This document shows, in pieces, positions 1-33,056 of a stretch of 64,000 nucleotides of DNA. Position 1 is the stretch's first letter. Each line of letters starts with the position of its first letter. The notes below the pieces were generated by a model that did not search any database, was not told where the DNA came from, and was given only the letters and a program-made list of their open reading frames with translations. Origin of the DNA: Eledone cirrhosa (taxonomy: Eukaryota); NCBI GenBank assembly GCA_964016885.1, contig OZ024744.1, positions 131,688,001-131,752,000 of the forward strand, read 5' to 3'. The position numbers and the translations under genes were made by a program.

Positions 1-162
1 ACTTAAATTAACCCCAACTTAAATTAACCCCAACTTAACTTAACCCCAACTTAACTTAACCCCAACTTAACTCACACCCAACTTAACTTACCCCCAACTT
101 AACTTAACCCCAACTTGACTTAACCCAAACTTAACTTAACCCCAACTTAACTTAACCCCAAA
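1..162 (-). repeat. Inverted satellite cassette 1 (5' part outside the window)
   Basis: (CTTAACTTAACCCCAA)n with the diagnostic CTCACACCC (71-79) and TACCCCC (89-95) variants; ends at the CCCCAAA|TTCGGGG junction (centre 162/163). Confidence 0.97.
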
Positions 163-2125
163 TTCGGGGTTAAGTTAAGTTGGGGTTAAGTTAAGTTAGG
201 CTTAACTTAAGTTGGGGTTAAGTTAAGTTGGGGGTAAGTTAAGTTCTGGGTAAGTTAAGTTGGGGTTAAGTTGGGGTTAATTTAAGTTAGGGTTAAGTTA
301 AGTTGGGGTTGAGTTAAGTTGGGGTTAAGTTAAGTTGGGGTTAAGTTAAGTTGGGGTCAAGTTAAGTTGGGGTTAAAATTAAGTTGGGGTTAAGTCAAGT
401 TGGGGTTAAGTTAAGTTGGGGTTAATTTAGTTGGGGTTAAGTTAAGTTGGGGCTAAGTTAATTTGGGGCTAAGTTAAGTTGGGGCTAAGTTAAGTTGGGG
501 TTAAGTTAAGTTGGGGTTAAGTTAAGTTGGGGTTAATTTAAATTGGGGTTAAGTTAACTTTGTGGTTAAGTTAAGTTGGGGTTAAGTTAAGTTGGGGCTA
601 AGTTAAGTTGGGGTTAAGTTAAGTTGGGGTTAAGTTAAGTTGGGGTTGAGTTAAGTTGGGGTTGAGTGAAGTTGGGGTTAAGTTAAGTTGGCGTTAAGTT
701 AAGTTGGGGTTGAGTTAAGTTGGGGTTGAGTTAATTTAGGGTTAAGTTAAGTTGGGGTTAAGTTAAGTTGGGTTTAAGTTAAGTTGGGGTTAAATTAAGT
801 TGGGGTTAAATTAAGTTGGGGTTAAGTTAAGTTGGGGGTAAGTTAAGTTGGGGTTAAGTTAAGTTGGGGTTCAGTTAAGTTAGGGTTAAGTTAAGTTTGG
901 GTTAAGTTGGGGTTAAATTAAGTTGGGGTTAAGTTAAGTTGGGGTTTAGTTAAGTTGGAGTTAAGTTAAGTTGGGGTTAATTTAAGTTGGGGTTAAGTTA
1001 AGTTGGTGTTAAGTTAAGTGGTGGTTATGTTAAGTTGGGGTTAAGTTAAGTTGGGGTTAATTTAAATTGGGGTTAAGTTAACTTTGTGGTTAAGTTAAGT
1101 TGGGGTTAAGTTAAGTTGGGGTTAAGTTAAGTTGGGGTTGAGTTAAGTTGGGGTTGAGTGAAGTTGGGGTTAAGTTAAGTTGGGGTTAATTTAAGTTGGG
1201 GTTAAGTTAAGTCGGGGTTAAGTTAAGTTGGGGTTGAGTTAAGTTGGTGTTAATTTAAGTTGGGGCTAAGTTAATTTGTGGTTAAGTTAAGTTGGGGTTA
1301 AGTTAAGTTGGGGTTAAGTTAAGTTGGGGTTGAGTTAAGTTGGGGTTGAGTTAATTTAGGGTTAAGTTAAGTTGGGGTTAAGTTAAGTTGGGTTTAAGTT
1401 AAGTTGGGGTTAAATTAAGTTGGGGTTAAGTTAAGTTGGGGGTAAGTTAAGTTGGGGGCAAGTTAAGTTGGGGTTCAGTTAAGTTGGGGTTAAATTAAGT
1501 TGGGGTTAAGTTTAGTTGGTGTTAAGTTAAGTTGGGGTTTATTTAAGTTGGGGTTAATTAAGTTGGGGTTAAGTTAAGTTGGGGTTAAGTTAAGTTGGGG
1601 TTAATTTAAGTTGGGGTTGAGTTAAGTTGGGGTTAAGTTAAGTTGGGTTTATATTAAGTTGGGGTTAAGTTAAGTTGGGGTTAAGTTAAGTTGGGGTTCA
1701 GTTAAGTTGCGGTTAAGTTAAGTTGGGGTTAAGTTAAGTTGGGGTTAAGTTAAGTTGGGGTTAAGTTAAGTTGGGGTTAAGTTAAGTTGGTGTTAAGTTA
1801 AGTTGGGGCTGAGTTAAGTTGGGGCTGAGTTAAGTTGGGGTTAAGTTAAGTTGGGGTTGAGTTAAGTTGGGGTTAAGTTAAGTTGGGGTTAAGTTAAGTT
1901 GGGGTTAAGTTAAGTTGGGGTCAAGTTAAGCTGGGGTTAAGTTAAGTTGGGGTTAAGCTAAGTTGGGGTTAAGTTAATTTGGGGTTCAGTTAAGTTGGGG
2001 TTAAGTCAAGTTGGGGTTAAGTTGTGGTTAAATTAATTTGGGGTTAAGTTAAGTTGGGGTTAAGTTAAGTTGGGGTTAAGTTAAGTTGGGGTTAAGTTAA
2101 TTTGTGGTTAAGTTAAGTTGGGGTT

Positions 2126-2518
2126 AACCCCAACTTCACTCAACCCCACCTTAACTCAACCCCAACTTAACTTAACCCCAACTTCACTCAACCCCAACTT
2201 AACTCAACCCCAACTGAACTTAACCCCAACTTAACTTAACCCTAACTTAACTTAACCCCGACTTAACTTAACTTCGACTTAACTTAACCCCAACTTAACT
2301 TAACCCCAACTTAACTTAACCCCAACTTAACTTAACCACAAATTAAGTTAACCCCAACTTAAATTAACCCCAACTTAAATTAACCCCAACTTAACTTAAC
2401 CCCAACTTAACTTAACCCCAACTTAACTCACACCCAACTTAACTTACCCCCAACTTAACTTAACCCCAACTTGACTTAACCCAAACTTAACTTAACCCCA
2501 ACTTAACTTAACCCCAAA
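2126..2518 (-). repeat. Inverted satellite cassette 2 (393 bp)
   Basis: Left junction GGGGTT|AACCCC at 2125/2126; internal CTTCACTCAACCCCACC and AACTTCGAC; right junction CCCCAAA|TTCGGGG. Confidence 0.97.
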
Positions 2519-5265
2519 TTCGGGGTTAAGTTAAGTTGGGGTTAAGTTAAGTTAGGCTTAACTTAAGTTGGGGTTAAGTTAAGTTGGGGGTAAGTTAAGT
2601 TCTGGGTAAGTTAAGTTGGGGTTAAGTTGGGGTTAATTTAAGTTAGGGTTAAGTTAAGTTGGGGTTGAGTTAAGTTGGGGTTAAGTTAAGTTGGGGTTAA
2701 GTTAAGTTGGGGTCAAGTTAAGTTGGGGTTAAAATTAAGTTGGGGTTAAGTCAAGTTGGGGTTAAGTTAAGTTGGGGTTAATTTAGTTGGGGTTAAGTTA
2801 AGTTGGGGCTAAGTTAATTTGGGGCTAAGTTAAGTTGGGGCTAAGTTAAGTTGGGGTTAAGTTAAGTTGGGGTTAAGTTAAGTTGGGGTTAATTTAAATT
2901 GGGGTTAAGTTAACTTTGTGGTTAAGTTAAGTTGGGGTTAAGTTAAGTTGGGGCTAAGTTAAGTTGGGGTTAAGTTAAGTTGGGGTTAAGTTAAGTTGGG
3001 GTTGAGTTAAGTTGGGGTTGAGTGAAGTTGGGGTTAAGTTAAGTTGGGGTTAAGTTAAGTTGGCGTTAAGTTAAGTTGGGGTTGAGTTAAGTTGGGGTTG
3101 AGTTAATTTAGGGTTAAGTTAAGTTGGGGTTAAGTTAAGTTGGGTTTAAGTTAAGTTGGGGTTAAATTAAGTTGGGGTTAAATTAAGTTGGGGTTAAGTT
3201 AAGTTGGGGGTAAGTTAAGTTGGGGTTAAGTTAAGTTGGGGTTCAGTTAAGTTAGGGTTAAGTTAAGTTTGGGTTAAGTTGGGGTTAAATTAAGTTGGGG
3301 TTAAGTTAAGTTGGGGTTTAGTTAAGTTGGAGTTAAGTTAATTTGGGGTTAATTTAAGTTGGGGTTAAGTTAAGTTGGTGTTAAGTTAAGTGGTGGTTAT
3401 GTTAAGTTGGGGTTAAGTTAAGTTGGGGTTAATTTAAATTGGGGTTAAGTTAACTTTGTGGTTAAGTTAAGTTGGGGTTAAGTTAAGTTGGGGTTAAGTT
3501 AAGTTGGGGTTGAGTTAAGTTGGGGTTGAGTGAAGTTGGGGTTAAGTTAAGTTGGGGTTAATTTAAGTTGGGGTTAAGTTAAGTCGGGGTTAAGTTAAGT
3601 TGGGGTTGAGTTAAGTTGGGGTTGAGTTAAGTTGGGGTTGAGTTAATTTAGGGTTAAGTTAAGTTGGGGTTAAGTTAAGTTGGGTTTAAGTTAAGTTGGG
3701 GTTAAATTAAGTTGGGGTTAAGTTAAGTTGGGGGTAAGTTAAGTTGGGGGCAAGTTAAGTTGGGGTTCAGTTAAGTTGGGGTTAAATTAAGTTGGGGTTA
3801 AGTTTAGTTGGTGTTAAGTTAAGTTGGGGTTTATTTAAGTTGGGGTTAATTAAGTTGGGGTTAAGTTAAGTTGGGGTTAAGTTAAGTTGGGGTTAATTTA
3901 AGTTGGGGTTGAGTTAAGTTGGGGTTAAGTTAAGTTGGGTTTATATTAAGTTGGGGTTAAGTTAAGTTGGGGTTAAGTTAAGTTGGGGTTCAGTTAAGTT
4001 GCGGTTAAGTTAAGTTGGTGTTAAGTTAAGTTGGGGCTGAGTTAAGTTGGGGCTGAGTTAAGTTGGGGTTAAGTTAAGTTGGGGTTGAGTTAAGTTGGGG
4101 TTAAGTTAAGTTGGGGTTAAGTTAAGTTGGGGTTAAGTTAAGTTGGGGTTAAGTTAAGTTGGGGTTTAGTTAAGTTGGGGTTCAGTTAAGTTGGGGTTAA
4201 GTTAAGTTTGGGTTAAGTTGGGGTTAAATTAATTTGGGGTTAAGTTAAGTTGGGGTTTAGTTTAGTTGGGGTTAATTTAAGTTGGGGTTAAGTTAAGTTG
4301 CGGGTAATTTAAGTTGGGGTTAAGTTAAGTTGCGGTTAAGTTAAGTTGGGGTTAAGTTAAGTTGGGGTTAAGTTAAATTGGGGTTAAGTTAATTTGGGGT
4401 TGAGTTAAGTTGGGGTTAAGTTAAGTTGGGGTTATGTTAAGTTGGGGTTAATTTAAGTTGCGGTTAAGTTAAGTTGGGGTTAAGTTGGGGTTAAGTTAAG
4501 TGGTGGTTATGTTAAGTTGGGGTTAAGTTAAGTTGGGTTTAATTTAAATTGGGGTTAAGTTAACTTTGTGGTTAAGTTAAGTTGGGGCTAAATTAAGTTG
4601 GGGCTAAGTTAAGTTGGGGCTAAGTTAAGTTGGGGTTCAGTTAAGTTGGGGTTAAGTTAAGTTTGGGTTAAGTTGGGGTTAAATTAAGTTGGGGTTAAGT
4701 TAAGTTGGGGTTTAGTTAAGTTGGGGTTAAGTTAAGTTGGGGTTAATTTAAGTTGGGGTTAAGTTAAGTGGTGGTTATGTTAAGTTGGGGTTAAGTTAAG
4801 TTGGGGTTAATTTAAATTGGGGTTAAGTTAACTTTGTGGTTAAGTTAAGTTGGGGTTAAGTTAAGTTGGGGTTAAGTTAAGTTGGGGTTCAGTTAAGTTG
4901 CGGTTAAGTTAAGTTGCGGTTAAGTTAAGTTGGGGTTAATTTAAGTTGGGGTTAAGTTAAGTTGGGGTCAAGTTAAGCTGGGGTTAAGTTAAGTTGGGGT
5001 TAAGTTAAGTTGGTTAGTTAAGTTGAGTTTAAGTTAAGTTGGGGTTAATTTAAGTTGGGTTTAAGTTAAGTTGGGGTTAAGTTAAGTTGGGGTTAAGTTA
5101 AGTTGGGGTTAAGTTAATTTGGGGTTCAGTTAAGTTGGGGTTAAGTCAAGTTGGGATTAAGTTGGGGTTAAATTAATTTGGGGTTAAGTTAAGTTGGGGT
5201 TAAGTTAAGTTGGGGTTAAGTTAAGTTGGGGTTAAGTTAATTTGTGGTTAAGTTAAGTTGGGGTT

Positions 5266-5685
5266 AACCCCAACTTCACTCAACCCCACCTTAACTCAAC
5301 CCCAACTTAACTTAACCCCAACTTCACTCAACCCCAACTTAACTTAACCCCAACTTCACTCAACCCCAACTTAACTCAACCCCAACTTAACTTAACCCCA
5401 ACTTAACTTAACCCTAACTTAACTTAACCCCGACTTAACTTAACTTCGACTTAACTTAACCCCAACTTAACCCCAACTTAACTTAACCCCAACTTAACTT
5501 AACCACAAATTAACTTAACCCCAACTTAAATTAACCCCAACTTAAATTAACCACAACTTAACTTAACCCCAACTTAACTTAACCCCAATTTAACTCACAC
5601 CCAACTTAACTTACCCCCAACTTAACTTAACCCCAACTTGACTTAACCCAAACTTAACTTAACCCCAACTTAACTTAACCCCAAA
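5266..5685 (-). repeat. Inverted satellite cassette 3 (420 bp)
   Basis: Same junctions and diagnostic variants as cassette 2; contains one 11-bp monomer. Confidence 0.97.
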
Positions 5686-8058
5686 TTCGGGGTTAAGTTA
5701 AGTTGGGGTTCAGTTAAGTTAGGCTTAACTTAAGTTGGGGTTAAGTTAAGTTGGGGGTAAGTTAAGTTCTGGGTAAGTTAAGTTGGGGTTAATTTAAGTT
5801 GGGGTTAATTTAAGTTAAGGTTAAGTTAAGTTGGGGTTGAGTTAAGTTGGGGTTAAGTTAAGTTGGAGTTAAGTTAAGTTGGGGTCAAGTTAAGTTGGGG
5901 TTAAAATTAAGTTGGGGTTAAGTCAAGTTGGGGTTAAGTTAAGTTGGGGTTAATTTAGTTGGGGTTAAGTTAAGTTGGGGCTAAGTTAAGTTGGGGCTAA
6001 GTTAAGTTGGGGCTAAGTTAAGTTGGGGTTAATTTAAATTGGGGTTAAGTTAACTTTGTGGTTAAGTTAAGTTGGGGTTAAGTTAAGTTGGGGCTAAGTT
6101 AAGTTGGGGTTAAGTTAAGTTGGGGTTAAGTTAAGTTGGGGTTGAGTTAAGTTGGGGTTGAGTGAAGTTGGGGTTAAGTTAAGTTGGGGTTAAGTTAAGT
6201 TGGCGTTAAGTTAAGTTGGGGTTGAGTTAAGTTGGGGTTGAGTTAATTTAGGGTTAAGTTAAGTTGGGGTTAAGTTAAGTTGGGTTTAAGTTAAGTTGGG
6301 GTTAAATTAAGTTGGGGTTAAATTAAGTTGGGGTTAAGTTAAGTTGGGGCTAAGTTAAGTTGGGGTTAAGTTAAGTTGGGGTTAAGTTAAGTTGGGGTTA
6401 AGTTAAGTTGGGGTTAAGTTAAGTTGGGGGTAAGTTAAGTTGGGGGTAAGTTAAGTTGGGGTTAAGTTAAGTTGGGGTTAAGTTAAGTTAGGGTTAAGTT
6501 AAGTTGGGGTTGAGTTAAGTTGGGGTTAAGTTAAGTTGATGTTATGTTAAGTTGGGGTTAAGTTAAGTTGCGGTTAAGTTAAGTTGGGGTTAAGTTAAGT
6601 TGGGGTTAAGTTAAATTGGGGTTAAGTTAAGTTGGGGTTGAGTTAAGTTGGGGTTAAGTTAAGTTGGGGTTATGTTAAGTTGGGGTTAATTTAAGTTGCG
6701 GTTAAGTTAAGTTGGGGTTAAGTTGGGGTTAAGTTAAGTTGGGGTTAAGTTAAGTTGGGGTTGAGTTAAGTTGGGGTTGAGTGAAGTTGGGGTTAAGTTA
6801 AGTTGGGGTTAAGTTAAGTTGGCGTTAAGTTTAGTTGGTGTTAAGTTAAGTTGGGGTTTATTTAAGTTGGGGTTAAGTTAAGTTGGGGTTAAGTTAAGTT
6901 GGGTTTAAGTTAAGTTGGGGTTAAATTAAGTTGGGGTTAAATTAAGTTGGGGTTAAGTTAAGTTGGGGCTAAGTTAAGTTGGGGTTAAGTTAAGTTGGGG
7001 TTAAGTTAAGTTGGGGTTAAGTTAAGTTGGGGTTAAGTTAAGTTGGGGGTAAGTTAAGTTGGGGGTAAGTTAAGTTGGGGTTAAGTTAAGTTGGGGTTAA
7101 GTTAAGTTAGGGTTAAGTTAAGTTGGGGTTGAGTTAAGTTGGGGTTAAGTTAAGTTGATGTTATGTTAAGTTGGGGTTAAGTTAAGTTGCGGTTAAGTTA
7201 AGTTGGGGTTAAGTTAAGTTGGGGTTAAGTTAAATCGGGGTTAAGTTAAGTTGGGGTTGAGTTAAGTTGGGGTTAAGTTAAGTTGGGGTTATGTTAAGTT
7301 GGGGTTAATTTAAGTTGCGGTTAAGTTAAGTTGGGGTTAAGTTGGGGTTAAGTTAAGTGGTGGTTATGTTAAGTTGGGGTTAAGTTAAGTTGGGGTTAAT
7401 TTAAATTGGGGTTAAGTTAACTTTGTGGTTAAGTTAAGTTGGGGCTAAATTAAGTTGGGGCTAAGTTAAGTTGGGGCTAAGTTAAGTTGGGGTTCAGTTA
7501 AGTTGGGGTTAAGTTAAGTTTGGGTTAAGTTGGGGTTAAATTAAGTTGGGGTTAATTTAAGTTGGGGTTAAGTTAAGTGGTGGTTATGTTAAGTTGGGGT
7601 TAAGTTAAGTTGGAGTTAATTTAAATTGGGGTTAAGTTAACTTTGTGGTTAAGTTAAGTTGGGGTTAAGTTAAGTTGGGGTTAAGTTAAGTTGGGGTTCA
7701 GTTAAGTTGCGGTTAAGTTAAGTTGCGGTTAAGTTAAGTTGGGGTTAAGTTAAGTTGGGGTTAAGTTAAGTTGGGGTTAAGTTAAGTTGGTTAGTTAAGT
7801 TGAGTTTAAGTTAAGTTGGGGTTAATTTAAGTTGGGTTTAAGTTAAGTTGGGGTTAAGTTAAGTTGGGGTTAAGTTAAGTTGGGGTTAAGTTAATTTGGG
7901 GTTCAGTTAAGTTGGGGTTAAGTCAAGTTGGGGTTAAGTTGGGGTTAAATTAATTTGGGGTTAAGTTAAGTTGGGGTTAAGTTAAGTTGGGGTTAAGTTA
8001 AGTTGGGGTTAAGTTAAGTTGGGGTTAAGTTAATTTGTGGTTAAGTTAAGTTGGGTTT

Positions 8059-8451
8059 AACCCCAACTTCACTCAACCCCACCTTAACTCAACCCCAACT
8101 TAACTTAATCCCAACTTCACTCAACCCCAACTTAACTTAACCCCAACTTCACTCAACCCCAACTTAACTTAACCCCAACTTAACTTAACCCTAACTTAAC
8201 TTAACCCCGACTTAACTTAACTTCGACTTAACTTAACCCCAACTTAACTTAACCCCAACTTAACTTAACCCCAACTTAACTTAACCACAAATTAACTTAA
8301 CCCCAACTTAAATTAACCCCAACTTAAATTAACCCCAACTTAACTTAACCCCAACTTAACTTAACCCCAACTTAACTCACACCCAACTTAACTTACCCCC
8401 AACTTAACTTAACCCCAACTTGACTTAACCCCAACTTAACTTAACCCCAAA
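8059..8451 (-). repeat. Inverted satellite cassette 4 (393 bp)
   Basis: Left junction variant GGGTTT|AACCCC; carries the TTAATCCCAAC variant; standard right junction. Confidence 0.97.
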
Positions 8452-10482
8452 TTCGGGGTTAAGTTAAGTTGGGGTTAACTTAAGTTGGGGTTAATTTAAG
8501 TTGGGGTTAAGTTAAGTCGGGGTTAAGTTAAGTTAGGCTTAACTTAAGTTGGGGTTAAGTTAAGTTGGGGGTAAGTTAAGTTCTGGGTAAGTTAAGTTGG
8601 GGTTAAGTTAAGTTGGGGTTAAGTTGGAGTTAATTTAAGTTAGGGTTAAGTTAAGTTGGGGTTGAGTTAAGTTGGGGTTAAGTTAAGTTGGGGTTAAGTT
8701 AAGTTGGGGTCAAGTTAAGTTGGGGTTAAAATTAAGTTGGGGTTAAGTCAAGTTGGGGTTAAGTTAAGTTGGGGTTAATTTAGTTGGGGTTAAGTTAAGT
8801 TGGGGCTAAGTTAAGTTGGGGCTAAGTTAAGTTGGGGCTAAGTTAAGTTGGGGTTAAGTTAAGTTGGGGTTAAGTTAAGTTGGGGTTAATTTAAATTGGG
8901 GTTAAGTTAACTTTGTGGTTAAGTTAAGTTGGGGTTAAGTTAAGTTGGGGCTAAGTTAAGTTGGGGTTAAGTTAAGTTGGGGTTAAGTTAAGTTGGGGTT
9001 GAGTTAAGTTGGGGTTGAGTGAAGTTGGGGTTAAGTTAAGTTGGGGTTAAGATAAGTGGGGTTAAGTTAAGTTGGGGTTGAGTTAAGTTGGGGTTAAGTT
9101 AAGTTGGGGTTATGTTAAGTTGGGGTTAATTTAAGTTGCGGTTAAGTTAAGTTGGGGTTAAGTTGGGGTTAAGTTAAGTTGGGGTTAAGTTAAGTTGGGG
9201 TTGAGTTAAGTTGGGGTTGAGTGAAGTTGGGGTTAAGTTAAGTTGGGGTTAAGTTAAGTTGGCGTTAAGTTAAGTTGGGGTTGAGTTAATTTAGGGTTAA
9301 GTTAAGTTGGGGTTAAGTTAAGTTGGGTTTAAGTTAAGTTGGGGTTAAATTAAGTTGGGGTTAAATTAAGTTGGGGTTAAGTTAAGTTGGGGCTAAGTTA
9401 AGTTGGGGTTAAGTTAAGTTGGGGTTAAGTTAAGTTGGGGTTAAGTTAAGTTGGGGTTAAGTTAAGTTGGGGGTAAGTTAAGTTGGGGGTAAGTTAAGTT
9501 GGGGTTAAGTTAAGTTGGGGTTAAGTTAAGTTAGGGTTAAGTTAAGTTGGGGTTGAGTTAAGTTGGGGTTAAGTTAAGTTGATGTTATGTTAAGTTGGGG
9601 TTAAGTTAAGTTGCGGTTAAGTTAAGTTGGGGTTAAGTTAAGTTGGGGTTAAGTTAAATCGGGGTTAAGTTAAGTTGGGGTTGAGTTAAGTTGGGGTTAA
9701 GTTAAGTTGGGGTTATGTTAAGTTGGGGTTAATTTAAGTTGCGGTTAAGTTAAGTTGGGGTTAAGTTGGGGTTAAGTTAAGTGGTGGTTATGTTAAGTTG
9801 GGGTTAAGTTAAGTTGGGGTTAATTTAAATTGGGGTTAAGTTAACTTTGTGGTTAAGTTAAGTTGGGGCTAAATTAAGTTGGGGCTAAGTTAAGTTGGGG
9901 CTAAGTTAAGTTGGGGTTCAGTTAAGTTGGGGTTAAGTTAAGTTTGGGTTAAGTTGGGGTTAAATTAAGTTGGGGTTAATTTAAGTTGGGGTTAAGTTAA
10001 GTGGTGGTTATGTTAAGTTGGGGTTAAGTTAAGTTGGAGTTAATTTAAATTGGGGTTAAGTTAACTTTGTGGTTAAGTTAAGTTGGGGTTAAGTTAAGTT
10101 GGGGTTAAGTTAAGTTGGGGTTCAGTTAAGTTGCGGTTAAGTTAAGTTGCGGTTAAGTTAAGTTGGGGTTAAGTTAAGTTGGGGTTAAGTTAAGTTGGGG
10201 TTAAGTTAAGTTGGTTAGTTAAGTTGAGTTTAAGTTAAGTTGGGGTTAATTTAAGTTGGGTTTAAGTTAAGTTGGGGTTAAGTTAAGTTGGGGTTAAGTT
10301 AAGTTGGGGTTAAGTTAATTTGGGGTTCAGTTAAGTTGGGGTTAAGTCAAGTTGGGGTTAAGTTGGGGTTAAATTAATTTGGGGTTAAGTTAAGTTGGGG
10401 TTAAGTTAAGTTGGGGTTAAGTTAAGTTGGGGTTAAGTTAAGTTGGGGTTAAGTTAATTTGTGGTTAAGTTAAGTTGGGGTT

Positions 10483-10891
10483 AACCCCAACTTCACTCAA
10501 CCCCACCTTAACTCAACCCCAACTTAACTTAATCCCAACTTCACTCAACCCCAACTTAACTTAACCCCAACTTCACTCAACCCCAACTTAACTTAACCCC
10601 AACTTAACTTAACCCTAACTTAACTTAACCCCGACTTAACTTAACTTCGACTTAACTTAACCCCAACTTAACTTAACCCCAACTTAACTTAACCCCAACT
10701 TAACTTAACCACAAATTAACTCAACCCCAACTTAAATTAACCCCAACTTAAATTAACCCCAACTTAACTTAACCCCAACTTAACTTAACCCCAACTTAAC
10801 TCACACCCAACTTAACTTACCCCCAACTTAACTTAACCCCAACTTGACTTAACCCAAACTTAACTTAACCCCAACTTAACTTAACCCCAAA
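10483..10891 (-). repeat. Inverted satellite cassette 5 (409 bp)
   Basis: Standard junctions; TTAATCCCAAC variant shared with cassettes 4, 6 and 7. Confidence 0.97.
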
Positions 10892-13800
10892 TTCGGGGTT
10901 AAGTTAAGTTGGGGTTAACTTAAGTTGGGGTTAATTTAAGTTGGGGTTAAGTTAAGTCGGGGTTAAGTTAAGTTAGGCTTAATTTAAGTTGGGGTTAAGT
11001 TAAGTTGGGGGTAAGTTAAGTTCTGGGTAAGTTAAGTTGGGGTTAAGTTAAGTTGGGGTTAAGTTGGAGTTAATTTAAGTTAGGGTTAAGTTAAGTTGGG
11101 GTTGAGTTAAGTTGGGGTTAAGTTAAGTTGGGGTTAAGTTAAGTTGGGGTTAAGTTAAGTTGGGGTTAATTTAGTTGGGGCTAAGTTAAGTTGGGGCTAA
11201 GTTAAGTTGGGGCTAAGTTAAGTTGGGGCTAAGTTAAGTTGGGGTTAAGTTAAGTTGGGGTTAAGTTAAGTTGGGGTTAATTTAAATTGGGGTTAAGTTA
11301 ACTTTGTGGTTAAGTTAAGTTGGGGTTAAGTTAAGTTGGGGCTAAGTTAAGTTGGGGTTAAGTTAAGTTGGGGTTAAGTTAAGTTGGGGTTGAGTTAAGT
11401 TGGGGTTGAGTGAAGTTGGGGTTAAGTTAAGTTGGGGTTAAGATAAGTGGGCGTTAAGTTAAGTTGGGGTTGAGTTAAGTTGGGGTTGAGTTAATTTAGG
11501 GTTAAGTTAAGTTGGGGTTAAATTAAGTTGGGGTTAAATTAAGTTGGGGTTAATTTAAGTTGGGGGTAAGTTAAGTTGGGGTTAAGTTAAGTTGGGGTTC
11601 AGTTAAGTTAGGGTTAAGTTAAGTTTGGGTTAAGTTGGGGTTAAATTAAGTTGGGGTTAAGTTAAGTTGGGGTTTAGTTAAGTTGGAGTTAAGTTAAGTT
11701 GGGGTTAATTTAAGTTGGGGTTAAGTTAAGTCGGGGTTAAGTTAAGTTGGGGTTGAGTTAAGTTGGGGTTAATTTAAGTTGGGGCTAAGTTAATTTGTGG
11801 TTAAGTTAAGTTGGGGTTAAGTTAAGTTGGGGTTAAGTTAAGTTGGGGTTGAGTTAAGTTGGGGTTGAGTTAATTTAGGGTTAAGTTAAGTTGGGGTTAA
11901 GTTAAGTTGGGTTTAAGTTAAGTTGGGGTTAAATTAAGTTGGGGTTAAGTTAAGTTGGGGGTAAGTTAAGTTGGGGGCAAGTTAAGTTGGGGTTAAGTTA
12001 AGTTGGGGTTACATTAAGTTGGGGTTAAGTTTAGTTGGTGTTAAGTTAAGTTGGGGTTTATTTAAGTTGGGGTTAATTAAGTTGGGGTTAAGTTAAGTTG
12101 GGGTTAAGTTAAGTTGGGGTTAATTTAAGTTGGGGTTGAGTTAAGTTGGGGTTAAGTTAAGTTGGGTTTATATTAAGTTGGGGTTAAGTTAAGTTGGGGT
12201 TAAGTTAAGTTGGGGTTCAGTTAAGTTGCGGTTAAGTTAAGTTGGGGTTAAGTTAAGTTGGGGTTAAGTTAAGTTGGGGTTAAGTTAAGTTGGGGTTAAG
12301 TTAAGTTGGTGTTAAGTTAAGTTGGGGCTGAGTTAAGTTGGGGCTGAGTTAAGTTGGGGTTAAGTTAAGTTGGGGTTGAGTTAAGTTGGGGTTAAGTTAA
12401 GTTGGGGTTAAGTTAAGTTGGGGTTAAGTTAAGTTGGGGTTAAGTTAAGTTGGGGTTTAGTTAAGTTGGGGTTCAGTTAAGTTGGGGTTAAGTTAAGTTT
12501 GGGTTAAGTTGGGGTTAAATTAATTTGGGGTTAAGTTAAGTTGGGGTTTAGTTTAGTTGGGGTTAAGTTAAGTTGGGGTTAATTTAAGTTGGGGTTAAGT
12601 TAAGTTGCGGGTAATTTAAGTTGGGGTTAAGTTAAGTTGGGGTTAATTTAAGTTGGGGTTAAGTTAAGTTGGGGTTAAGTTAAGTTGGGGTTAAGTTAAG
12701 TTGGGGGAAAGTTAAGTTGGGGGTAAGTTAAGTTGGGGGTAAGTTAAGTTGGGGTTAAGTTAAGTTGGGGTTAAGTTAAGTTAGGGTTAAGTTAAGTTGG
12801 GGTTGAGTTAAGTTGGGGTTAAGTTAAGTTGGGGTTATGTTAAGCTGGGGTTAAGTTAAGTTGCGGTTAAGTTAAGTTGGGGTTAAGTTAAGTTGGGGTT
12901 AAGTTAAATTGGGGTTAAGTTAAGTTGGGGTTGAGTTAAGTTGGGGTTAAATTAAGTTGGGGTTATGTTAAGTTGGGGTTAAGTTAAGTTGCGGTTAAGT
13001 TAAGTTGGGGTTAAGTTGGGGTTAAGTTAAGTGGTGGTTATGTTAAGTTGGGGTTAAGTTAAGTTGGGGTTAATTTAAATTGGGGTTAAGTTAACTTTGT
13101 GGTTAAGTTAAGTTGGGGCTAAATTAAGTTGGGGCTAAGTTAAGTTGGGGTTAAGTTAAGTTTGGGTTAAGTTGGGGTTAAATTAAGTTGGGGTTAAGTT
13201 AAGTTGGGGTTTAGTTAAGTTGGGGTTAAGTTAAGTTGGGGTTAAATTAAGTTGGGGTTAAGTTAAGTTGGGGTTAAGTTAAGTGGTGGTTATGTTAAGT
13301 TGGGGTTAAGTTAAGTTGGGGTTAATTTAAATTGGGGTTAAGTTAACTTTGTGGTTAAGTTAAGTTGGGGTTAAGTTAAGTTGGGGTTAAGTTAAGTTGG
13401 GGTTCAGTTAAGTTGCGGTTAAGTTAAGCTGGGGTTAAGTTAAGTTGGGGTTAAGTTAAGTTGGTTAGTTAAGTTGAGTTTAAGTTAAGTTGGGGTTAAT
13501 TTAAGTTGGGTTTAAGTTAAGTTGGGGTTGAGTTAAGTTGGGGTTGAGTTAAATTGGGGTGGAGTTAAGTTGGGGTTGAGTTAAGTTGGTGTTGAGTTAA
13601 GTTGGGGTTAAGTTAAGTTGGGGTTAAGTTAAGTTGCAGTTAAGTTGAGGTTAAGTTAAGTAGGGGTTAAGTTAAGTTGTGGTTAAGTTAAGTTGGGGCT
13701 AAGTTAAGTTGGGGCTAAGTTAAGTTGGGGCTAAGATAAGTTGGGGTTCAGTCAAGTTGGGGTTAAGTTAATTTGGGTTAATTTGGGGTTAAATTAAGTT

Positions 13801-16800
13801 GGGGTTAAGTTAAGTTGGGGTTTAGTTAAGTTGGGGTTAAGTTAAGTTGGGGTTAATTTAAGTTGGGGTTAAGTTAAGTTGGTGTTAAGTTAAGTGGTGG
13901 TTATGTTAAGTTGGGGTTAAGTTAAGTTGGGGTTAATTTAAATTGGGGTTAAGTTAACTTTGTGGTTAAGTTAAGTTGTGGTTATGTTAAGTTGGGGTTA
14001 AGTTAAGTTGGGGTTGAGTTAAGTTGGGGTTGAGTGAAGTTGGGGTTACGTTAAGTCGGGGTTAAGTTAAGTTGGGGTTGAGTTAAGTTGGGGTTAATTT
14101 AAGTTGGGGCTAAGTTAATTTGTGGTTAAGTTAAGTTGGGGTTAAGTTAAGTTGGGGTTAAGTTAAGTTGGGGTTGAGTTAAGTTGGGGTTGAGTTAATT
14201 TAGGGTTAAGTTAAGTTGGGGTTAAGTTAAGTTGGGTTTAAGTTAAGTTGGGGTTAAATTAAGTTGGGGTTAAGTTAAGTTGGGGGTAAGTTAAGTTGGG
14301 GGCAAGTTAAGTTGGGGTTAAGTTAAGTTGGGGTTAAATTAAGTTGGGGTTAAGTTTAGTTGGTGTTAAGTTAAGTTGGGGTTTATTTAAGTTGGGGTTA
14401 ATTAAGTTGGGGTTAAGTTAAGTTGGGGTTAAGTTAAGTTGGGGTTAATTTAAGTTGGGGTTGAGTTAAGTTGGGGTTAAGTTAAGTTGGGGTTAAGTTA
14501 AGTTGGGGTTCAGTTAAGTTGCGGTTAAGTTAAGTTGCGGTTAAGTTAAGTTGGGGTTAAGTTAAGTTGGGGTTAAGTTAAGTTGGGGTTAAGTTAAGTT
14601 GGGGTTAAGTTAAGTTGGTGTTAAGTTAAGTTGGGGCTGAGTTAAGTTGGGGCTGAGTTAAGTTGGGGTTAAGTTAAGTTGGGGTTGAGTTAAGTTGGGG
14701 TTAAGTTAAGTTGGAGTTAAGTTAAGTTGGGGTTAAGTTAAGTTTGGGTTAAGTTAAGTTGGGGTTTAGTTTAGTTGGGGTTAAGTTAAGTTGGGGTTAA
14801 TTTAAGTTGGGGTTAAGTTAAGTTGCGGGTAATTTAAGTTGGGTTTAAGTTAAGTTGGGGTTAAGTTAAGTTGGGGTTAAGTTAAGTTGGGGATAAGTTA
14901 AGTTGGGGTTAAGTTAAGTTGGGGGTAAGTTAAGTTGGGGGTAAGTTAAGTTGGGGGTAAGTTAAGTTGGGGTTAAGTTAAGTTGGGGTTAAGTTAAGTT
15001 AGGGTTAAGTTAAGTTGGGGTTGAGTTAAGTTGGGGTTAAGTTAAGTTGGGGTTATGTTAAGTTGGGGTTAAGTTAAGTTGCGGTTAAGTTAAGTTGGGG
15101 TTAAGTTAAGTTGGGGTTAAATTAAGTTGGTGTTAAGTTAAGTTGGGGCTAAGTTAAGTTGGGGCTGATTTAAGTTGGGGCCGAGTTAAGTTGGGGTTAA
15201 GTTAAGTTGGGGTTGAGTTAAGTTGGGGTTAAGTTAAGTTGGGGTTAAGTTAAGTTGGGGTTCAGTTAAGTTGGGGTTAAGTTAAGTTGGGGTTAAGATG
15301 GGGTTAAATTAAGTTGGGGTTAATTTAAGTTGGGGATAAGTTAAGTTGGTGTTAAGTTAAGTTGGGGTTAAGTTAAGTCGGGGTTAAGTTAAGTCGGGGT
15401 TAAGTTAAGTTAGGGTTAAGTTAAGTTGGAGTTAAGTTAAGTTGGGGTTGAGTTAAGTTGGGGTTGAGTTAAATTGGGGTGGAGTTAAGTTGGGGTTGAG
15501 TTAAGTTGGTGTTGAGTTATGTTGGGGTTAAGTTAAGTTGGGGTTAAGTTAAGTTGCAGTTAAGTTAAGTTGAGGTTAAGTTAAGTTGGGGTTAAGTTAA
15601 GTTGGGGTTAAGTTAAGTTGGGGCTAAGTTAAGTTGGGGCTAAGTTAAGTTGGGGCTAAGTTAAGTTGGGGTTCAGTTAAGTTGGGGTTAAGTTAAGTTT
15701 GGGTTAAGTTGGGGTTAAATTAAGTTGGGGTTAATTTAAGTTGGGGTTTAGTTAATTTGGGGTTAAGTTAAGTTGGGGTTAATTTAAGTTGGGGTTAAGT
15801 TAAGTTGGGGTTAGGTTAAGTGGTGGTTATGTTAAGTTGGGGTTAATTTAAGTTGGGGTTAATTTAAATTGGGGTTAAGTTAACTTTGTGGATAAGTTAA
15901 GTTGGGGTTAAGTTAAGTTGGGGTTAAGTTAAGTTGGGGTTGAGTTAAGTTGGGGTTGAGTGAAGTTGGGGTTAAGTTAAGTTGGGGTTAATTTAAGTTG
16001 GGGTTAAGTTAAGTCGGGGTTAAGTTAAGTTGGGGTTGAGTTAAGTTGGGGTTAATTTAAGTTGGGGCTAAGTTAATTTGTGGTTAAGTTAAGTTGGGGT
16101 TAAGTTAAGTTGGGGTTAAGTTAAGTTGGGGTTGAGTTAAGTTGGGGTTGAGTTAATTTAGGGTTAAGTTAAGTTGGGGTTAAGTTAAGTTGGGTTTAAG
16201 TTAAGTTGGGGTTAAATTAAGTTGGGGTTAAATTAAGTTGGGGTTAAGTTAGGTTGGGGGTAAGTTAAGTTGGGGGCAAGTTAAGTTGGGGTTAAGTTAA
16301 GTTGGGGTTAAATTAAGTTGGGGTTAAGTTAAGTTGGTGTTTAGTTAAGTTGGGGTTTATTTAAGTTGGGGTTAATTAAGTTGGGGTTAAGTTAAGTTGG
16401 GGTTAAGTTAAGTTGGGGTTAATTTAAGTTGGGGTTGAGTTAAGTTGGGGTTAAGTTAAGTTGGGTTTATATTAAGTTGGGGTTAAGTTAAGTTGGGGTT
16501 AAGTTAAGTTCGGGTTCAGTTAAGTTGCGGTTAAGTTAAGTTGGGGTTAAGTTAAGTTGGGGTTAAGTTAAGTTGGGGTTAAGTTAAGTTGGGGTTAAGT
16601 TAAGTTGGTGTTAAGTTAAGTTGGGGCTAAGTTAAGTTGGGGCTGAGTTAAGTTGGGGCTGAGTTAAGTTGGGGTTAAGTTAAGTTGGGGTTGAGTTAAG
16701 TTGGGGTTAAGTTAAGTTGGGGTTAAGTTAAGTTGGTTAGTTAAGTTGAGTTTAAGTTAAGTTGGGGTTAATTTAAGTTGGGTTTAAGTTAAGTTGGGGT

Positions 16801-17576
16801 TAAGTTAATTTGGGGTTAAGTTAAGTTGGGGTTCAGTTAAGTTGGGGTTAAGTTAAGTTGGGGTTAAGATGGGGTTAAATTAAGTTGGGGTTAAGTTAAG
16901 TTGGGGTTAAGTTAAGTTGGGGTTAAGTTAAGTCGGGGTTAAGTTAAGTTAGGGTTAAGTTAAGTTGGAGTTAAGTTAAGTTGGGGTTGAGTTAAGTTGG
17001 GGTTGAGTTAAATTGGGGTGGAGTTAAGTTGGGGTTGAGTTAAGTTGGTGTTGAGTTATGTTGGGGTTAAGTTAAGTTGGGGTTAAGTTAAGTTGCAGTT
17101 AAGTTAAGTTGAGGTTAAGTTAAGTTGGGGTTAAGTTAAGTTGGGGTTAAGTTAAGTTGGGGCTAAGTTAAGTTGGGGCTAAGTTAAGTTGGGGCTAAGT
17201 TAAGTTGGGGTTCAGTTAAGTTGGGGTTAAGTTAAGTTTGGGTTAAGTTGGGGTTAAATTAAGTTGGGGTTAAGTTAAGTTGGGGTTTAGTTAAGTTGGG
17301 GTTAAGTTAAGTTGGGGTTAATTTAAGTTGGGGTTAAGTTAAGTTGGGGTTAGGTTAAGTGGTGGTTATGTTAAGTTGGGGTTAAGTTAAGTTGGGGTTA
17401 ATTTAAATTGGGGTTAAGTTAACTTTGTGGATAAGTTAAGTTGGGGTTAAGTTAAGTTGGGGTTAAGTTAAGTTGGGGTTGAGTTAAGTTGGGGTTAAGT
17501 TAAGTTGGGGTTAAGTTAAGTTGGGGTTAAGTTAAGTTGGGGTTAAGTTAATTTGTGGTTAAGTTAAGTTGGGTTT

Positions 17577-17969
17577 AACCCCAACTTCACTCAACCCCAC
17601 CTTAACTCAACCCCAACTTAACTTAATCCCAACTTCACTCAACCCCAACTTAACTTAACCCCAACTTCACTCAACCCCAACTTAACTTAACCCCAACTTA
17701 ACTTAACCCTAACTTAACTTAACCCCGACTTAACTTAACTTCGACTTAACTTAACCCCAACTTAACTTAACCCCAACTTAACTTAACCCCAACTTAACTT
17801 AACCACAAATTAACTTAACCCCAACTTAAATTAACCCCAACTTAAATTAACCCCAACTTAACTTAACCCCAACTTAACTTAACCCCAACTTAACTCACAC
17901 CCAACTTAACTTACCCCCAACTTAACTTAACCCCAACTTGACTTAACCCCAACTTAACTTAACCCCAAA
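17577..17969 (-). repeat. Inverted satellite cassette 6 (393 bp; duplicate of cassette 4)
   Basis: Same GGGTTT|AACCCC variant as cassette 4, at offset 9518. Confidence 0.97.
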
Positions 17970-20000
17970 TTCGGGGTTAAGTTAAGTTGGGGTTAACTTA
18001 AGTTGGGGTTAATTTAAGTTGGGGTTAAGTTAAGTCGGGGTTAAGTTAAGTTAGGCTTAACTTAAGTTGGGGTTAAGTTAAGTTGGGGGTAAGTTAAGTT
18101 CTGGGTAAGTTAAGTTGGGGTTAAGTTAAGTTGGGGTTAAGTTGGAGTTAATTTAAGTTAGGGTTAAGTTAAGTTGGGGTTGAGTTAAGTTGGGGTTAAG
18201 TTAAGTTGGGGTTAAGTTAAGTTGGGGTCAAGTTAAGTTGGGGTTAAAATTAAGTTGGGGTTAAGTCAAGTTGGGGTTAAGTTAAGTTGGGGTTAATTTA
18301 GTTGGGGTTAAGTTAAGTTGGGGCTAAGTTAAGTTGGGGCTAAGTTAAGTTGGGGCTAAGTTAAGTTGGGGTTAAGTTAAGTTGGGGTTAAGTTAAGTTG
18401 GGGTTAATTTAAATTGGGGTTAAGTTAACTTTGTGGTTAAGTTAAGTTGGGGTTAAGTTAAGTTGGGGCTAAGTTAAGTTGGGGTTAAGTTAAGTTGGGG
18501 TTAAGTTAAGTTGGGGTTGAGTTAAGTTGGGGTTGAGTGAAGTTGGGGTTAAGTTAAGTTGGGGTTAAGATAAGTGGGGTTAAGTTAAGTTGGGGTTGAG
18601 TTAAGTTGGGGTTAAGTTAAGTTGGGGTTATGTTAAGTTGGGGTTAATTTAAGTTGCGGTTAAGTTAAGTTGGGGTTAAGTTGGGGTTAAGTTAAGTTGG
18701 GGTTAAGTTAAGTTGGGGTTGAGTTAAGTTGGGGTTGAGTGAAGTTGGGGTTAAGTTAAGTTGGGGTTAAGTTAAGTTGGCGTTAAGTTAAGTTGGGGTT
18801 GAGTTAATTTAGGGTTAAGTTAAGTTGGGGTTAAGTTAAGTTGGGTTTAAGTTAAGTTGGGGTTAAATTAAGTTGGGGTTAAATTAAGTTGGGGTTAAGT
18901 TAAGTTGGGGCTAAGTTAAGTTGGGGTTAAGTTAAGTTGGGGTTAAGTTAAGTTGGGGTTAAGTTAAGTTGGGGTTAAGTTAAGTTGGGGGTAAGTTAAG
19001 TTGGGGGTAAGTTAAGTTGGGGTTAAGTTAAGTTGGGGTTAAGTTAAGTTAGGGTTAAGTTAAGTTGGGGTTGAGTTAAGTTGGGGTTAAGTTAAGTTGA
19101 TGTTATGTTAAGTTGGGGTTAAGTTAAGTTGCGGTTAAGTTAAGTTGGGGTTAAGTTAAGTTGGGGTTAAGTTAAATCGGGGTTAAGTTAAGTTGGGGTT
19201 GAGTTAAGTTGGGGTTAAGTTAAGTTGGGGTTATGTTAAGTTGGGGTTAATTTAAGTTGCGGTTAAGTTAAGTTGGGGTTAAGTTGGGGTTAAGTTAAGT
19301 GGTGGTTATGTTAAGTTGGGGTTAAGTTAAGTTGGGGTTAATTTAAATTGGGGTTAAGTTAACTTTGTGGTTAAGTTAAGTTGGGGCTAAATTAAGTTGG
19401 GGCTAAGTTAAGTTGGGGCTAAGTTAAGTTGGGGTTCAGTTAAGTTGGGGTTAAGTTAAGTTTGGGTTAAGTTGGGGTTAAATTAAGTTGGGGTTAATTT
19501 AAGTTGGGGTTAAGTTAAGTGGTGGTTATGTTAAGTTGGGGTTAAGTTAAGTTGGAGTTAATTTAAATTGGGGTTAAGTTAACTTTGTGGTTAAGTTAAG
19601 TTGGGGTTAAGTTAAGTTGGGGTTAAGTTAAGTTGGGGTTCAGTTAAGTTGCGGTTAAGTTAAGTTGCGGTTAAGTTAAGTTGGGGTTAAGTTAAGTTGG
19701 GGTTAAGTTAAGTTGGGGTTAAGTTAAGTTGGTTAGTTAAGTTGAGTTTAAGTTAAGTTGGGGTTAATTTAAGTTGGGTTTAAGTTAAGTTGGGGTTAAG
19801 TTAAGTTGGGGTTAAGTTAAGTTGGGGTTAAGTTAATTTGGGGTTCAGTTAAGTTGGGGTTAAGTCAAGTTGGGGTTAAGTTGGGGTTAAATTAATTTGG
19901 GGTTAAGTTAAGTTGGGGTTAAGTTAAGTTGGGGTTAAGTTAAGTTGGGGTTAAGTTAAGTTGGGGTTAAGTTAATTTGTGGTTAAGTTAAGTTGGGGTT

Positions 20001-20409
20001 AACCCCAACTTCACTCAACCCCACCTTAACTCAACCCCAACTTAACTTAATCCCAACTTCACTCAACCCCAACTTAACTTAACCCCAACTTCACTCAACC
20101 CCAACTTAACTTAACCCCAACTTAACTTAACCCTAACTTAACTTAACCCCGACTTAACTTAACTTCGACTTAACTTAACCCCAACTTAACTTAACCCCAA
20201 CTTAACTTAACCCCAACTTAACTTAACCACAAATTAACTCAACCCCAACTTAAATTAACCCCAACTTAAATTAACCCCAACTTAACTTAACCCCAACTTA
20301 ACTTAACCCCAACTTAACTCACACCCAACTTAACTTACCCCCAACTTAACTTAACCCCAACTTGACTTAACCCAAACTTAACTTAACCCCAACTTAACTT
20401 AACCCCAAA
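20001..20409 (-). repeat. Inverted satellite cassette 7 (409 bp; duplicate of cassette 5)
   Basis: Same variants as cassette 5, at offset 9518. Confidence 0.97.
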
Positions 20410-23400
20410 TTCGGGGTTAAGTTAAGTTGGGGTTAACTTAAGTTGGGGTTAATTTAAGTTGGGGTTAAGTTAAGTCGGGGTTAAGTTAAGTTAGGCTTAA
20501 TTTAAGTTGGGGTTAAGTTAAGTTGGGGGTAAGTTAAGTTCTGGGTAAGTTAAGTTGGGGTTAAGTTAAGTTGGGGTTAAGTTGGAGTTAATTTAAGTTA
20601 GGGTTAAGTTAAGTTGGGGTTGAGTTAAGTTGGGGTTAAGTTAAGTTGGGGTTAAGTTAAGTTGGGGTTAAGTTAAGTTGGGGTTAATTTAGTTGGGGCT
20701 AAGTTAAGTTGGGGCTAAGTTAAGTTGGGGCTAAGTTAAGTTGGGGCTAAGTTAAGTTGGGGTTAAGTTAAGTTGGGGTTAAGTTAAGTTGGGGTTAATT
20801 TAAATTGGGGTTAAGTTAACTTTGTGGTTAAGTTAAGTTGGGGTTAAGTTAAGTTGGGGCTAAGTTAAGTTGGGGTTAAGTTAAGTTGGGGTTAAGTTAA
20901 GTTGGGGTTGAGTTAAGTTGGGGTTGAGTGAAGTTGGGGTTAAGTTAAGTTGGGGTTAAGATAAGTGGGCGTTAAGTTAAGTTGGGGTTGAGTTAAGTTG
21001 GGGTTGAGTTAATTTAGGGTTAAGTTAAGTTGGGGTTAAATTAAGTTGGGGTTAAATTAAGTTGGGGTTAAGTTAAGTTGGGGGTAAGTTAAGTTGGGGT
21101 TAAGTTAAGTTGGGGTTCAGTTAAGTTAGGGTTAAGTTAAGTTTGGGTTAAGTTGGGGTTAAATTAAGTTGGGGTTAAGTTAAGTTGGGGTTTAGTTAAG
21201 TTGGAGTTAAGTTAAGTTGGGGTTAATTTAAGTTGGGGTTAAGTTAAGTCGGGGTTAAGTTAAGTTGGGGTTGAGTTAAGTTGGGGTTAATTTAAGTTGG
21301 GGCTAAGTTAATTTGTGGTTAAGTTAAGTTGGGGTTAAGTTAAGTTGGGGTTAAGTTAAGTTGGGGTTGAGTTAAGTTGGGGTTGAGTTAATTTAGGGTT
21401 AAGTTAAGTTGGGGTTAAGTTAAGTTGGGTTTAAGTTAAGTTGGGGTTAAATTAAGTTGGGGTTAAGTTAAGTTGGGGGTAAGTTAAGTTGGGGGCAAGT
21501 TAAGTTGGGGTTAAGTTAAGTTGGGGTTACATTAAGTTGGGGTTAAGTTTAGTTGGTGTTAAGTTAAGTTGGGGTTTATTTAAGTTGGGGTTAATTAAGT
21601 TGGGGTTAAGTTAAGTTGGGGTTAAGTTAAGTTGGGGTTAATTTAAGTTGGGGTTGAGTTAAGTTGGGGTTAAGTTAAGTTGGGTTTATATTAAGTTGGG
21701 GTTAAGTTAAGTTGGGGTTAAGTTAAGTTGGGGTTCAGTTAAGTTGCGGTTAAGTTAAGTTGGGGTTAAGTTAAGTTGGGGTTAAGTTAAGTTGGGGTTA
21801 AGTTAAGTTGGGGTTAAGTTAAGTTGGTGTTAAGTTAAGTTGGGGCTGAGTTAAGTTGGGGCTGAGTTAAGTTGGGGTTAAGTTAAGTTGGGGTTGAGTT
21901 AAGTTGGGGTTAAGTTAAGTTGGGGTTAAGTTAAGTTGGGGTTAAGTTAAGTTGGGGTTAAGTTAAGTTGGGGTTTAGTTAAGTTGGGGTTCAGTTAAGT
22001 TGGGGTTAAGTTAAGTTTGGGTTAAGTTGGGGTTAAATTAATTTGGGGTTAAGTTAAGTTGGGGTTTAGTTTAGTTGGGGTTAAGTTAAGTTGGGGTTAA
22101 TTTAAGTTGGGGTTAAGTTAAGTTGCGGGTAATTTAAGTTGGGGTTAAGTTAAGTTGGGGTTAATTTAAGTTGGGGTTAAGTTAAGTTGGGGTTAAGTTA
22201 AGTTGGGGTTAAGTTAAGTTGGGGGAAAGTTAAGTTGGGGGTAAGTTAAGTTGGGGGTAAGTTAAGTTGGGGTTAAGTTAAGTTGGGGTTAAGTTAAGTT
22301 AGGGTTAAGTTAAGTTGGGGTTGAGTTAAGTTGGGGTTAAGTTAAGTTGGGGTTATGTTAAGCTGGGGTTAAGTTAAGTTGCGGTTAAGTTAAGTTGGGG
22401 TTAAGTTAAGTTGGGGTTAAGTTAAATTGGGGTTAAGTTAAGTTGGGGTTGAGTTAAGTTGGGGTTAAATTAAGTTGGGGTTATGTTAAGTTGGGGTTAA
22501 GTTAAGTTGCGGTTAAGTTAAGTTGGGGTTAAGTTGGGGTTAAGTTAAGTGGTGGTTATGTTAAGTTGGGGTTAAGTTAAGTTGGGGTTAATTTAAATTG
22601 GGGTTAAGTTAACTTTGTGGTTAAGTTAAGTTGGGGCTAAATTAAGTTGGGGCTAAGTTAAGTTGGGGTTAAGTTAAGTTTGGGTTAAGTTGGGGTTAAA
22701 TTAAGTTGGGGTTAAGTTAAGTTGGGGTTTAGTTAAGTTGGGGTTAAGTTAAGTTGGGGTTAAATTAAGTTGGGGTTAAGTTAAGTTGGGGTTAAGTTAA
22801 GTGGTGGTTATGTTAAGTTGGGGTTAAGTTAAGTTAGGGTTAATTTAAATTGGGGTTAAGTTAACTTTGTGGTTAAGTTAAGTTGGGGTTAAGTTAAGTT
22901 GGGGTTAAGTTAAGTTGGGGTTCAGTTAAGTTGCGGTTAAGTTAAGCTGGGGTTAAGTTAAGTTGGGGTTAAGTTAAGTTGGTTAGTTAAGTTGAGTTTA
23001 AGTTAAGTTGGGGTTAATTTAAGTTGGGTTTAAGTTAAGTTGGGGTTGAGTTAAGTTGGGGTTGAGTTAAATTGGGGTGGAGTTAAGTTGGGGTTGAGTT
23101 AAGTTGGTGTTGAGTTAAGTTGGGGTTAAGTTAAGTTGGGGTTAAGTTAAGTTGCAGTTAAGTTGAGGTTAAGTTAAGTAGGGGTTAAGTTAAGTTGTGG
23201 TTAAGTTAAGTTGGGGCTAAGTTAAGTTGGGGCTAAGTTAAGTTGGGGCTAAGATAAGTTGGGGTTCAGTCAAGTTGGGGTTAAGTTAATTTGGGTTAAT
23301 TTGGGGTTAAATTAAGTTGGGGTTAAGTTAAGTTGGGGTTTAGTTAAGTTGGGGTTAAGTTAAGTTGGGGTTAATTTAAGTTGGGGTTAAGTTAAGTTGG

Positions 23401-30804: not shown

Positions 30805-31229
30805 AACCCCAACTTCACTCAACCCCACCTTAACTCAACCCCAACTGAACTTAACCCCAACTTCACTCAACCCCAACTTAACTTAACCCCAACTTCACTC
30901 AACCCCAACTTAACTCAACCCCAACTTAACTTAACCCCAACTTAAGTTAACCCTAACTTAACTTAACCCCGACTTAACTTAACTTCGACTTAACTTAACC
31001 CCAACTTAACTTAACCCCAACTTAACTTAACCCCAACTTAACTTAACCACAAATTAACTTAACCCCAACTTAAATTAACCCCAACTTAAATTAACCCCAA
31101 CTTAACTTAACCCCAACTTAACTTAACCCCAACTTAACTCACACCCAACTTAACTTACCCCCAACTTAACTTAACCCCAACTTGACTTAACCCCAACTTA
31201 ACTTAACCCCAACTTAACTTAACCCCAAA
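30805..31229 (-). repeat. Inverted satellite cassette 8 (425 bp)
   Basis: Standard junctions and AACTTCGAC; the downstream TTAGGCTTAAC unit is missing in this copy. Confidence 0.97.
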
Positions 31230-32792: not shown

Positions 32793-33056
32793 AACCCGAA
32801 CTTCACTCAACCCCACCTTAACTCAACCCCAACTTAACTTAACCCCAACTTCACTCAACCCCAACTTAACTCAACCCCAACTTAACTTAACCCCAACTTA
32901 ACTTAACCTTAACTTAACTTAACCCCGACTTAACTTAACTTCGACTTAACTTAACCCCAACTTAACTTAACCCCAACTTAACTTAACCCCAACTTAACTT
33001 AACACAAATTAACTTAACCCCAACTTAAATTAACCCCAACTTAAATTAACCCCAAA
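32793..33056 (-). repeat. Inverted satellite cassette 9 (264 bp, internally deleted)
   Basis: Left junction GGGGTT|AACCCG; lacks the CTCACACCC, TACCCCC and CTTGAC monomers but keeps the right junction. Confidence 0.96.

Follow-up and report, generated by a model that had tools for sequence, protein, structure and literature searches.

The window, that is, the whole 64 kb stretch of DNA that was analysed (C28:131,688,001-131,752,000, in a genome of 3.0 Gb), consists of one 16-bp G-rich satellite with higher-order variant patterns. It is part of an array that extends on C28 from approximately 126.97 to at least 135.33 Mb; an inverted island of the satellite lies near 124.6-124.7 Mb of C28, and a second array of the same satellite occupies at least 9.95-10.51 Mb of C18. 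The G-rich strand is the forward strand across the window, except in 13 inverted cassettes (Table 1). Approximately 1.3 Mb from 126 loci was decomposed into monomers and every variant was recorded, which corresponds to about 15% of the approximately 8.4 Mb array being aligned. Each monomer contains a run of four Gs that is 12 bases from the next, and putative quadruplexes on one strand might stall forks. Non-satellite insertions of up to approximately 3 kb break the array, some of them within cassettes (L030, L032, L074, L103, L105, L122, L133, L176, L193 and L194). Several other short-unit satellites flank it (L041-L047 and L060; C28 118-124.4 and 135.5 Mb), one of which may be derived from retrotransposon-like sequence.

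Table 1. Satellite, cassettes, junctions and variants in the window.
Feature	Position	Strand	Remark
16-bp satellite, consensus TTAAGTTAAGTTGGGG	1..64000	+	part of ~8.4 Mb array
Family 1 cassette, right part, cut by window start	1..162	-	
C75 (cassette monomer 6) and C91 (cassette monomer 5), T>G in the first base of each; two extra changes absent from flank	75..91	-	
Family 1 right junction, CCCC-AAATTC-GGGG, tip base 163 = T	156..169	.	
Right-flank block with own variants A198, C201, C206 and an 11-bp monomer	163..276	+	also cassette-free at 128.6-129.8 Mb
G234 and G250, mirrored T>G doublet of right flank	234..250	+	
Family 1 left junction, GGGG-TTAA-CCCC, 4 bp TTAA microhomology	2120..2131	.	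identical across all full copies
Family 1 full cassette copy, doublet in register	2126..2518	-	
Family 1 cassette copy, doublet in register	5266..5685	-	
Family 1 cassette copy, doublet out of register (4 vs 8)	8059..8451	-	
Family 1 cassette copy, doublet out of register (5 vs 8)	10483..10891	-	
Family 1 cassette copy, doublet out of register (4 vs 8)	17577..17969	-	
Family 1 cassette copy, doublet out of register (5 vs 8)	20001..20409	-	
Family 1 cassette copy, doublet out of register (5 vs 3)	30805..31229	-	
Family 1 short cassette copy, 264 bp, doublet lost	32793..33056	-	
Family 1 cassette copy, doublet in register	41439..41862	-	
Family 1 cassette copy, doublet in register	47002..47425	-	
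Family 1 cassette copy, doublet in register	52644..53068	-	
Family 1 cassette copy, doublet in register	59275..59699	-	

The 13 cassettes are copies of a single inverted unit (family 1) and measure 264-425 bp, the first being cut by the window start. One pair of left and right junctions is common to the 147 family 1 copies that were sampled at 124.6-135.0 Mb in several lineages; their length ranges from 127 to 522 bp, and the forward runs between them are mostly 0.4-10 kb long. The right junction has at least 783 matches in the genome (two exact patterns, 272 and 511), and among the matches listed every one sits on C28. With its 147 copies and these matches, family 1 represents a conserved and amplified inversion site within a satellite array. 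In the window cassettes the right junction reads CCCC-AAA(G/T)TC-GGGG. Because the tip base is G in 97 of the 147 copies (T in 36, A in 14), the AATT appearance of the right tip in the window is likely to be derived, and the ancestral junction, in its G form, probably had 1 bp of microhomology. The AATT palindrome was ruled out as a priming site, T being found in just 36 copies. A mechanism of the FoSTeS/MMBIR kind would leave short microhomology at both junctions. The left junction has 4 bp of microhomology (TTAA), while the 1 bp of the right junction is reached or exceeded by 80 of 256 random junctions. Family 1 shows lineage-specific gain and loss of whole monomers, and its cassettes have sometimes been deleted from the array. 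An assembly chimera was ruled out, as the cassette copies bear lineage-specific variants. Contigs of the run X3 span the left junction (record 2074-2178) and the right one (records 136-189, with 27 bases per side, below the 31-base bar), but as X3 may be the source sample this support is weak; no piece spanning either junction was found in the small shares of the runs X1 and X2 that were searched.

The first-pass annotation had described variants that were mirrored across the right junction, and the mirror itself was confirmed in the sequence. About the centre 162/163, C91 maps onto G234 and C75 onto G250; both represent one and the same T>G change, which affects the initial base of the fifth and sixth monomers counted from the junction. 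The left junction is indeed devoid of such variants, with a mean of 0.05 in-register shared variant per copy (8 monomers, 146 copies). The third monomer, which was said to be aberrant on both arms, differs from the consensus by changes that the arms do not share. Since the mirrored doublet is also in register in the distant lineage at 124.6 Mb, the pair must be old. Across 92 bases, the arms about the right junction share two variants against nine mismatches; with seven differences, the plain consensus is closer to the cassette arm than the flank is. The register of the doublet is held in seven of the 13 window copies, shifted in five and lost with the doublet itself in one; array-wide, it was found in 31 of the 58 copies that keep both doublets, while 89 of the 147 are without one or both. 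As the earlier caveat had noted, such G doublets occur elsewhere: of the 3,682 adjacent forward pairs that the window contains, 87 are G-G, and for the sampled array the figure is 1,706 of 77,196 (2.2%). The mirrored G pair likely reflects a frequent variant doublet that happened to align.

When the reverse-complemented cassette was scored against the forward positions, the right flank, which had been proposed as its donor, was not the best match, and better partial donors were found. Over the six monomers that had been picked in the first-pass annotation, the score of the right flank was equalled at 73 of the 3,651 positions in the window and at 987 of the 53,323 in the array (1.9%; m=0.4); over the whole window cassette, it was equalled at 6,059 of 48,621 forward positions (12.5%; m=0.4). 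The mirror is nominally above chance (p of about 0.01-0.03), but the tested interval was picked after the mirror had been seen. In forward orientation, the cassette doublet plus its extra T was counted 115 times (28 loci), and the version carrying both extra changes nine times. For its middle and for its far part, the cassette has its best alignments with other forward blocks (128.9-129.7 and 130-135 Mb), at five shared and three to four unshared variants. The block that forms the right flank, with variants that are absent from the cassette, has 49 occurrences, in 22 of the 58 loci without a family 1 cassette; against a cassette-free relative it has 16 shared and four unshared variants, which is the level of true homologs here. 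Given the observed loss of cassettes, these cassette-free copies could be secondary. In the approximately 1.3 Mb that was aligned of the approximately 8.4 Mb array, no contiguous forward donor of family 1 was found, only partial matches to several forward blocks. The top alignment matches in L103, L105 and L192 were rejected as donors because they are broken cassettes; L103, L105 and the right-flank starts were left out of all later null sets, as were the cassette-free homologs from the nulls of the tests that used the long reconstruction or omitted the spotted monomers. The cassette source was likely a forward stretch other than the immediate right flank.

Two sister families of cassettes, both younger, show the form of a true local inverted duplication. 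Family 2 (212-245 bp; C28 128.56-129.16 Mb; L030:1692-1920 and L073:4808-5052) duplicates, in inverted orientation and on one side only, the last four monomers of its own left flank. Its arms have 5.6 shared versus 0.7 unshared variants per copy (10 copies), a score that was matched by none of 77,870 positions; six variants are shared, TTAA is present at both ends and the TTAA pairs used are 69 bp apart. The un-inverted source of family 2 was not found in the sampled array. Family 3 (144 bp; three copies, C18 10.13-10.19 Mb; L161:4119-4263, L161:7219-7363 and L162:3795-3939) shares five variants with its own left flank in two copies and two in the third, which was matched at none of 34,512 C28 positions, and its TTAA pairs are 32 bp apart. 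Comparison with a diverged forward paralog suggests that the family 3 event lost no sequence. Families 2 and 3 prove that local inverted duplication occurs in this satellite; both are mirrored at the left junction and with a spacer, unlike the spacer-less geometry at the right junction that was first proposed for family 1.

A 4-bp TTAA overlap was present at eight of nine independent strand-switch junctions, whereas 20 of 256 would be expected by chance. They comprise the left junction of family 1, the two ends of family 2, the two ends of family 3 and three single junctions (130.475, 131.965 and 132.859 Mb); the lone exception is the right junction of family 1. Pattern searches, which possibly favoured TTAA junctions, contributed four of the nine; of the five that were met by plain sampling, four had TTAA (p of about 2e-4). 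In one family 1 copy (L171:4687-4813, C28 130.475 Mb), the original right tip is deleted and a new TTAA junction is found in its place, as would be expected for the loss of a palindrome centre.

Exchange between the cassettes and the forward array is also visible. A variant that is otherwise specific to the cassette is found in forward orientation at C28:131,677,101 (L037:5000-5260), and this stretch is likely a conversion from an inverted copy. A family 1 junction marks an end of each of three inverted blocks, of approximately 2 kb, 23 kb and 560 kb, the largest (C28 ~132.8-133.36 Mb; L106-L110 and L172-L181) having been read at one end, so that its orientation is putative. Moreover, the reversed island of approximately 90 kb at 124.60-124.69 Mb (L021-L027 and L192), 2 Mb outside the array, starts within a cassette and is similar to the lineage at 132.0-132.8 Mb, and one inversion joins a cassette to forward sequence. 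The forward-oriented variant and the three inverted blocks suggest that cassettes and the forward array have recombined.

We consider it moderately probable that one template switch at TTAA gave rise to family 1, copied from a forward stretch whose identity has been lost, and that the amplification of the array spread it. Template switching is likely to be the class of mechanism; for family 1 we infer it from the sister families 2 and 3, as no contiguous donor was found in the aligned part of the array. A nascent strand would have jumped to the opposite strand via TTAA pairing and read some 21-26 monomers in the backward direction before its return, which used 1 bp of microhomology, after which ordinary array amplification would have spread the unit and erased the donor signal. 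The cassettes would then have offered inverted homology for larger flips, in line with the inversions that end at cassette junctions. Of the initial proposal, namely a hairpin or template-switch copy of the right flank that rejoined the array at a TTAA palindrome, the mechanism class and the left-junction TTAA fit, as does the divergence of the arms before amplification, but the right flank, with only two shared variants, is an unlikely donor. The absence of TTAA at the right junction of family 1 speaks against our explanation.

In the fold-back reading, the cassette is an old, spacer-less copy of its right flank; the arms would have diverged, and monomers would have been deleted and converted so that the arms were reshuffled, before the unit was amplified. 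We regard this as unlikely, even though several results favour it. More than one lineage has the doublet in register, and for a reconstructed ancestor over 6-10 monomers the right flank ranks in the top 0.7-1%. A long, 26-monomer reconstruction of the cassette shares variants in register with the ancestral right flank at monomers 5, 6, 20, 21 and 26, a match that was equalled at 84 of 71,205 positions; a gapped alignment fixed at the junction was equalled at 120 of 32,687, which places the flank in the top 0.1-0.4%, or at 2.2% with a free offset. Five or six such matches were present in three of the 147 real copies. When the monomers that had been spotted first were left out, one of six pairings gave p=0.0075, but the other five, the window's own included, gave p=0.17-0.67. 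With free offset and gaps, mirroring had p=0.065-0.78 on the left side, where a fold-back with a 14-monomer spacer reached p=0.065, and p=0.02-0.50 on the right. Further, this reading requires either two mutually cancelling 5-monomer indels or the loss of most variants, the flank variants occur without the cassette, and both clean families are mirrored at the opposite junction and with a spacer. In a one-way array, an inverted repeat from which a 6-nt loop could be primed would also not have existed beforehand.

A cassette that came from elsewhere, with the two G variants transferred later from one arm to the other during hairpin or cruciform pairing, is very improbable. The right-junction region can be folded into a long hairpin (-82 kcal/mol), and the exchange at C28:131,677,101 and the inversion joining cassette to forward sequence show that cassettes and array do exchange sequence. 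The plain consensus, however, folds better (-91.8 kcal/mol), and equally good folding was obtained with 37 of 150 random in-register partners; the hairpin z-score of -17.5 was discarded as uninformative, because any inverted satellite folds likewise. An unshared change lies between the two Gs, and no sign of continuing copying in hairpin register was seen in the 147 copies, which beyond the doublet have three single mirrored variants at zero offset, a number not in excess of that seen at other offsets. Hardly less improbable is a break-and-rejoin origin in which end joining put an excised or circular piece of the satellite back in reverse, without any switch during replication. The lack of an adjacent donor and the 1 bp of microhomology at the right junction agree with it, and TTAA ends would also suit microhomology-mediated end joining. 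Yet the duplicated flank sequence of families 2 and 3 needs synthesis, and joining the flanks of family 1 to the re-inverted cassette leaves five bases between the G-runs at both ends instead of 12. A clean reciprocal inversion was ruled out, since whole monomers are not restored.

The origin of strand switches inside satellite arrays is usually guessed. Our results lean, if narrowly, towards a scheme in which inter-strand switches at the TTAA of the monomer make short, one-sided inverted duplications, one junction of which was amplified at least 783 times, its copies seeding inversions of 2 kb to approximately 560 kb. If this is true, macro-dyad satellites would gain an origin mechanism at the level of the base. 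A single founder junction suffices to explain hundreds of identical sites, the arms of which are not kept in register; in the available part of PMC13081366, conserved inversion sites are read as signs of function. The two young events, families 2 and 3, lend themselves to a base-by-base reading as template switches, and it is in these clean families and the TTAA rule that the value of the data lies; the right-junction mirror is too thin to name a donor. A literature search of main texts, with incomplete coverage, returned no satellite inversions that had been traced to template switches by variant sharing, and the monomer string appeared in no paper.

Among the closest known systems is the four-point short-range template switch as described in the available part of PMC5453318, in which an inverted fragment arises by copying of the opposite strand near the fork and little microhomology is needed. 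Families 2 and 3 match the opposite strand of nearby sequence and correspond to its type 3-1-2-4, an inverted repeat with an inverted spacer, which the apparent lack of sequence loss in family 3 fits; family 1 has partial matches to several blocks. The fold-back of the right flank would be type 1-4-3-2 or 1-3-4-2, whereas a mirror-less origin would be 1-3-2-4, the commonest type there (45%). Those events, as reported in that part, concern single-copy primate DNA and jumps of tens of bases, while the pieces here are 144-522 bp long, lie inside a satellite and were later amplified. Small inverted triplications (PMC13334657, in the part available) have an inverted piece of about 160 bp, a spacer of about 30 bp and a junction of about 6 bp, and family 3 falls within their size range (144, 32 and 4 bp). 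They are, however, duplicated on both sides, while none of the three families here is mirrored on more than one. In ODIRA, according to the accessible part of PMC10766183, a leading-to-lagging switch takes place at interrupted inverted repeats of 2-14 bp that are mostly 40-80 bp apart. The 69 bp between the TTAA pairs of family 2 resembles this spacing, and a junctional inverted repeat spaced by 30-80 bp, a trait of ODIRA and small triplications, is found in families 2 and 3 but not at the right junction of family 1, where the offset is zero. There is no triplication here; ODIRA would also involve an origin-bearing hairpin or dogbone intermediate. The likeness to ODIRA that had been suggested for family 1 fails: no more than one side is mirrored even weakly, and the right junction has 1 bp of microhomology and no spacer. 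Because neither side is clearly duplicated, family 1 is neither ODIRA nor a small inverted triplication and would work like a short-range template switch. As an amplified, conserved inversion site in an array, it resembles the Tribolium macro-dyad satellites, in which, in the part of PMC13081366 that was available, orientation switches at a few conserved inversion sites that are repeated thousands of times. The inverted subarrays of Tribolium are kilobases long and roughly symmetric, in contrast to cassettes of 127-522 bp between long forward runs, and ectopic recombination was proposed for them, whereas here the tracing of variants points to template switching.
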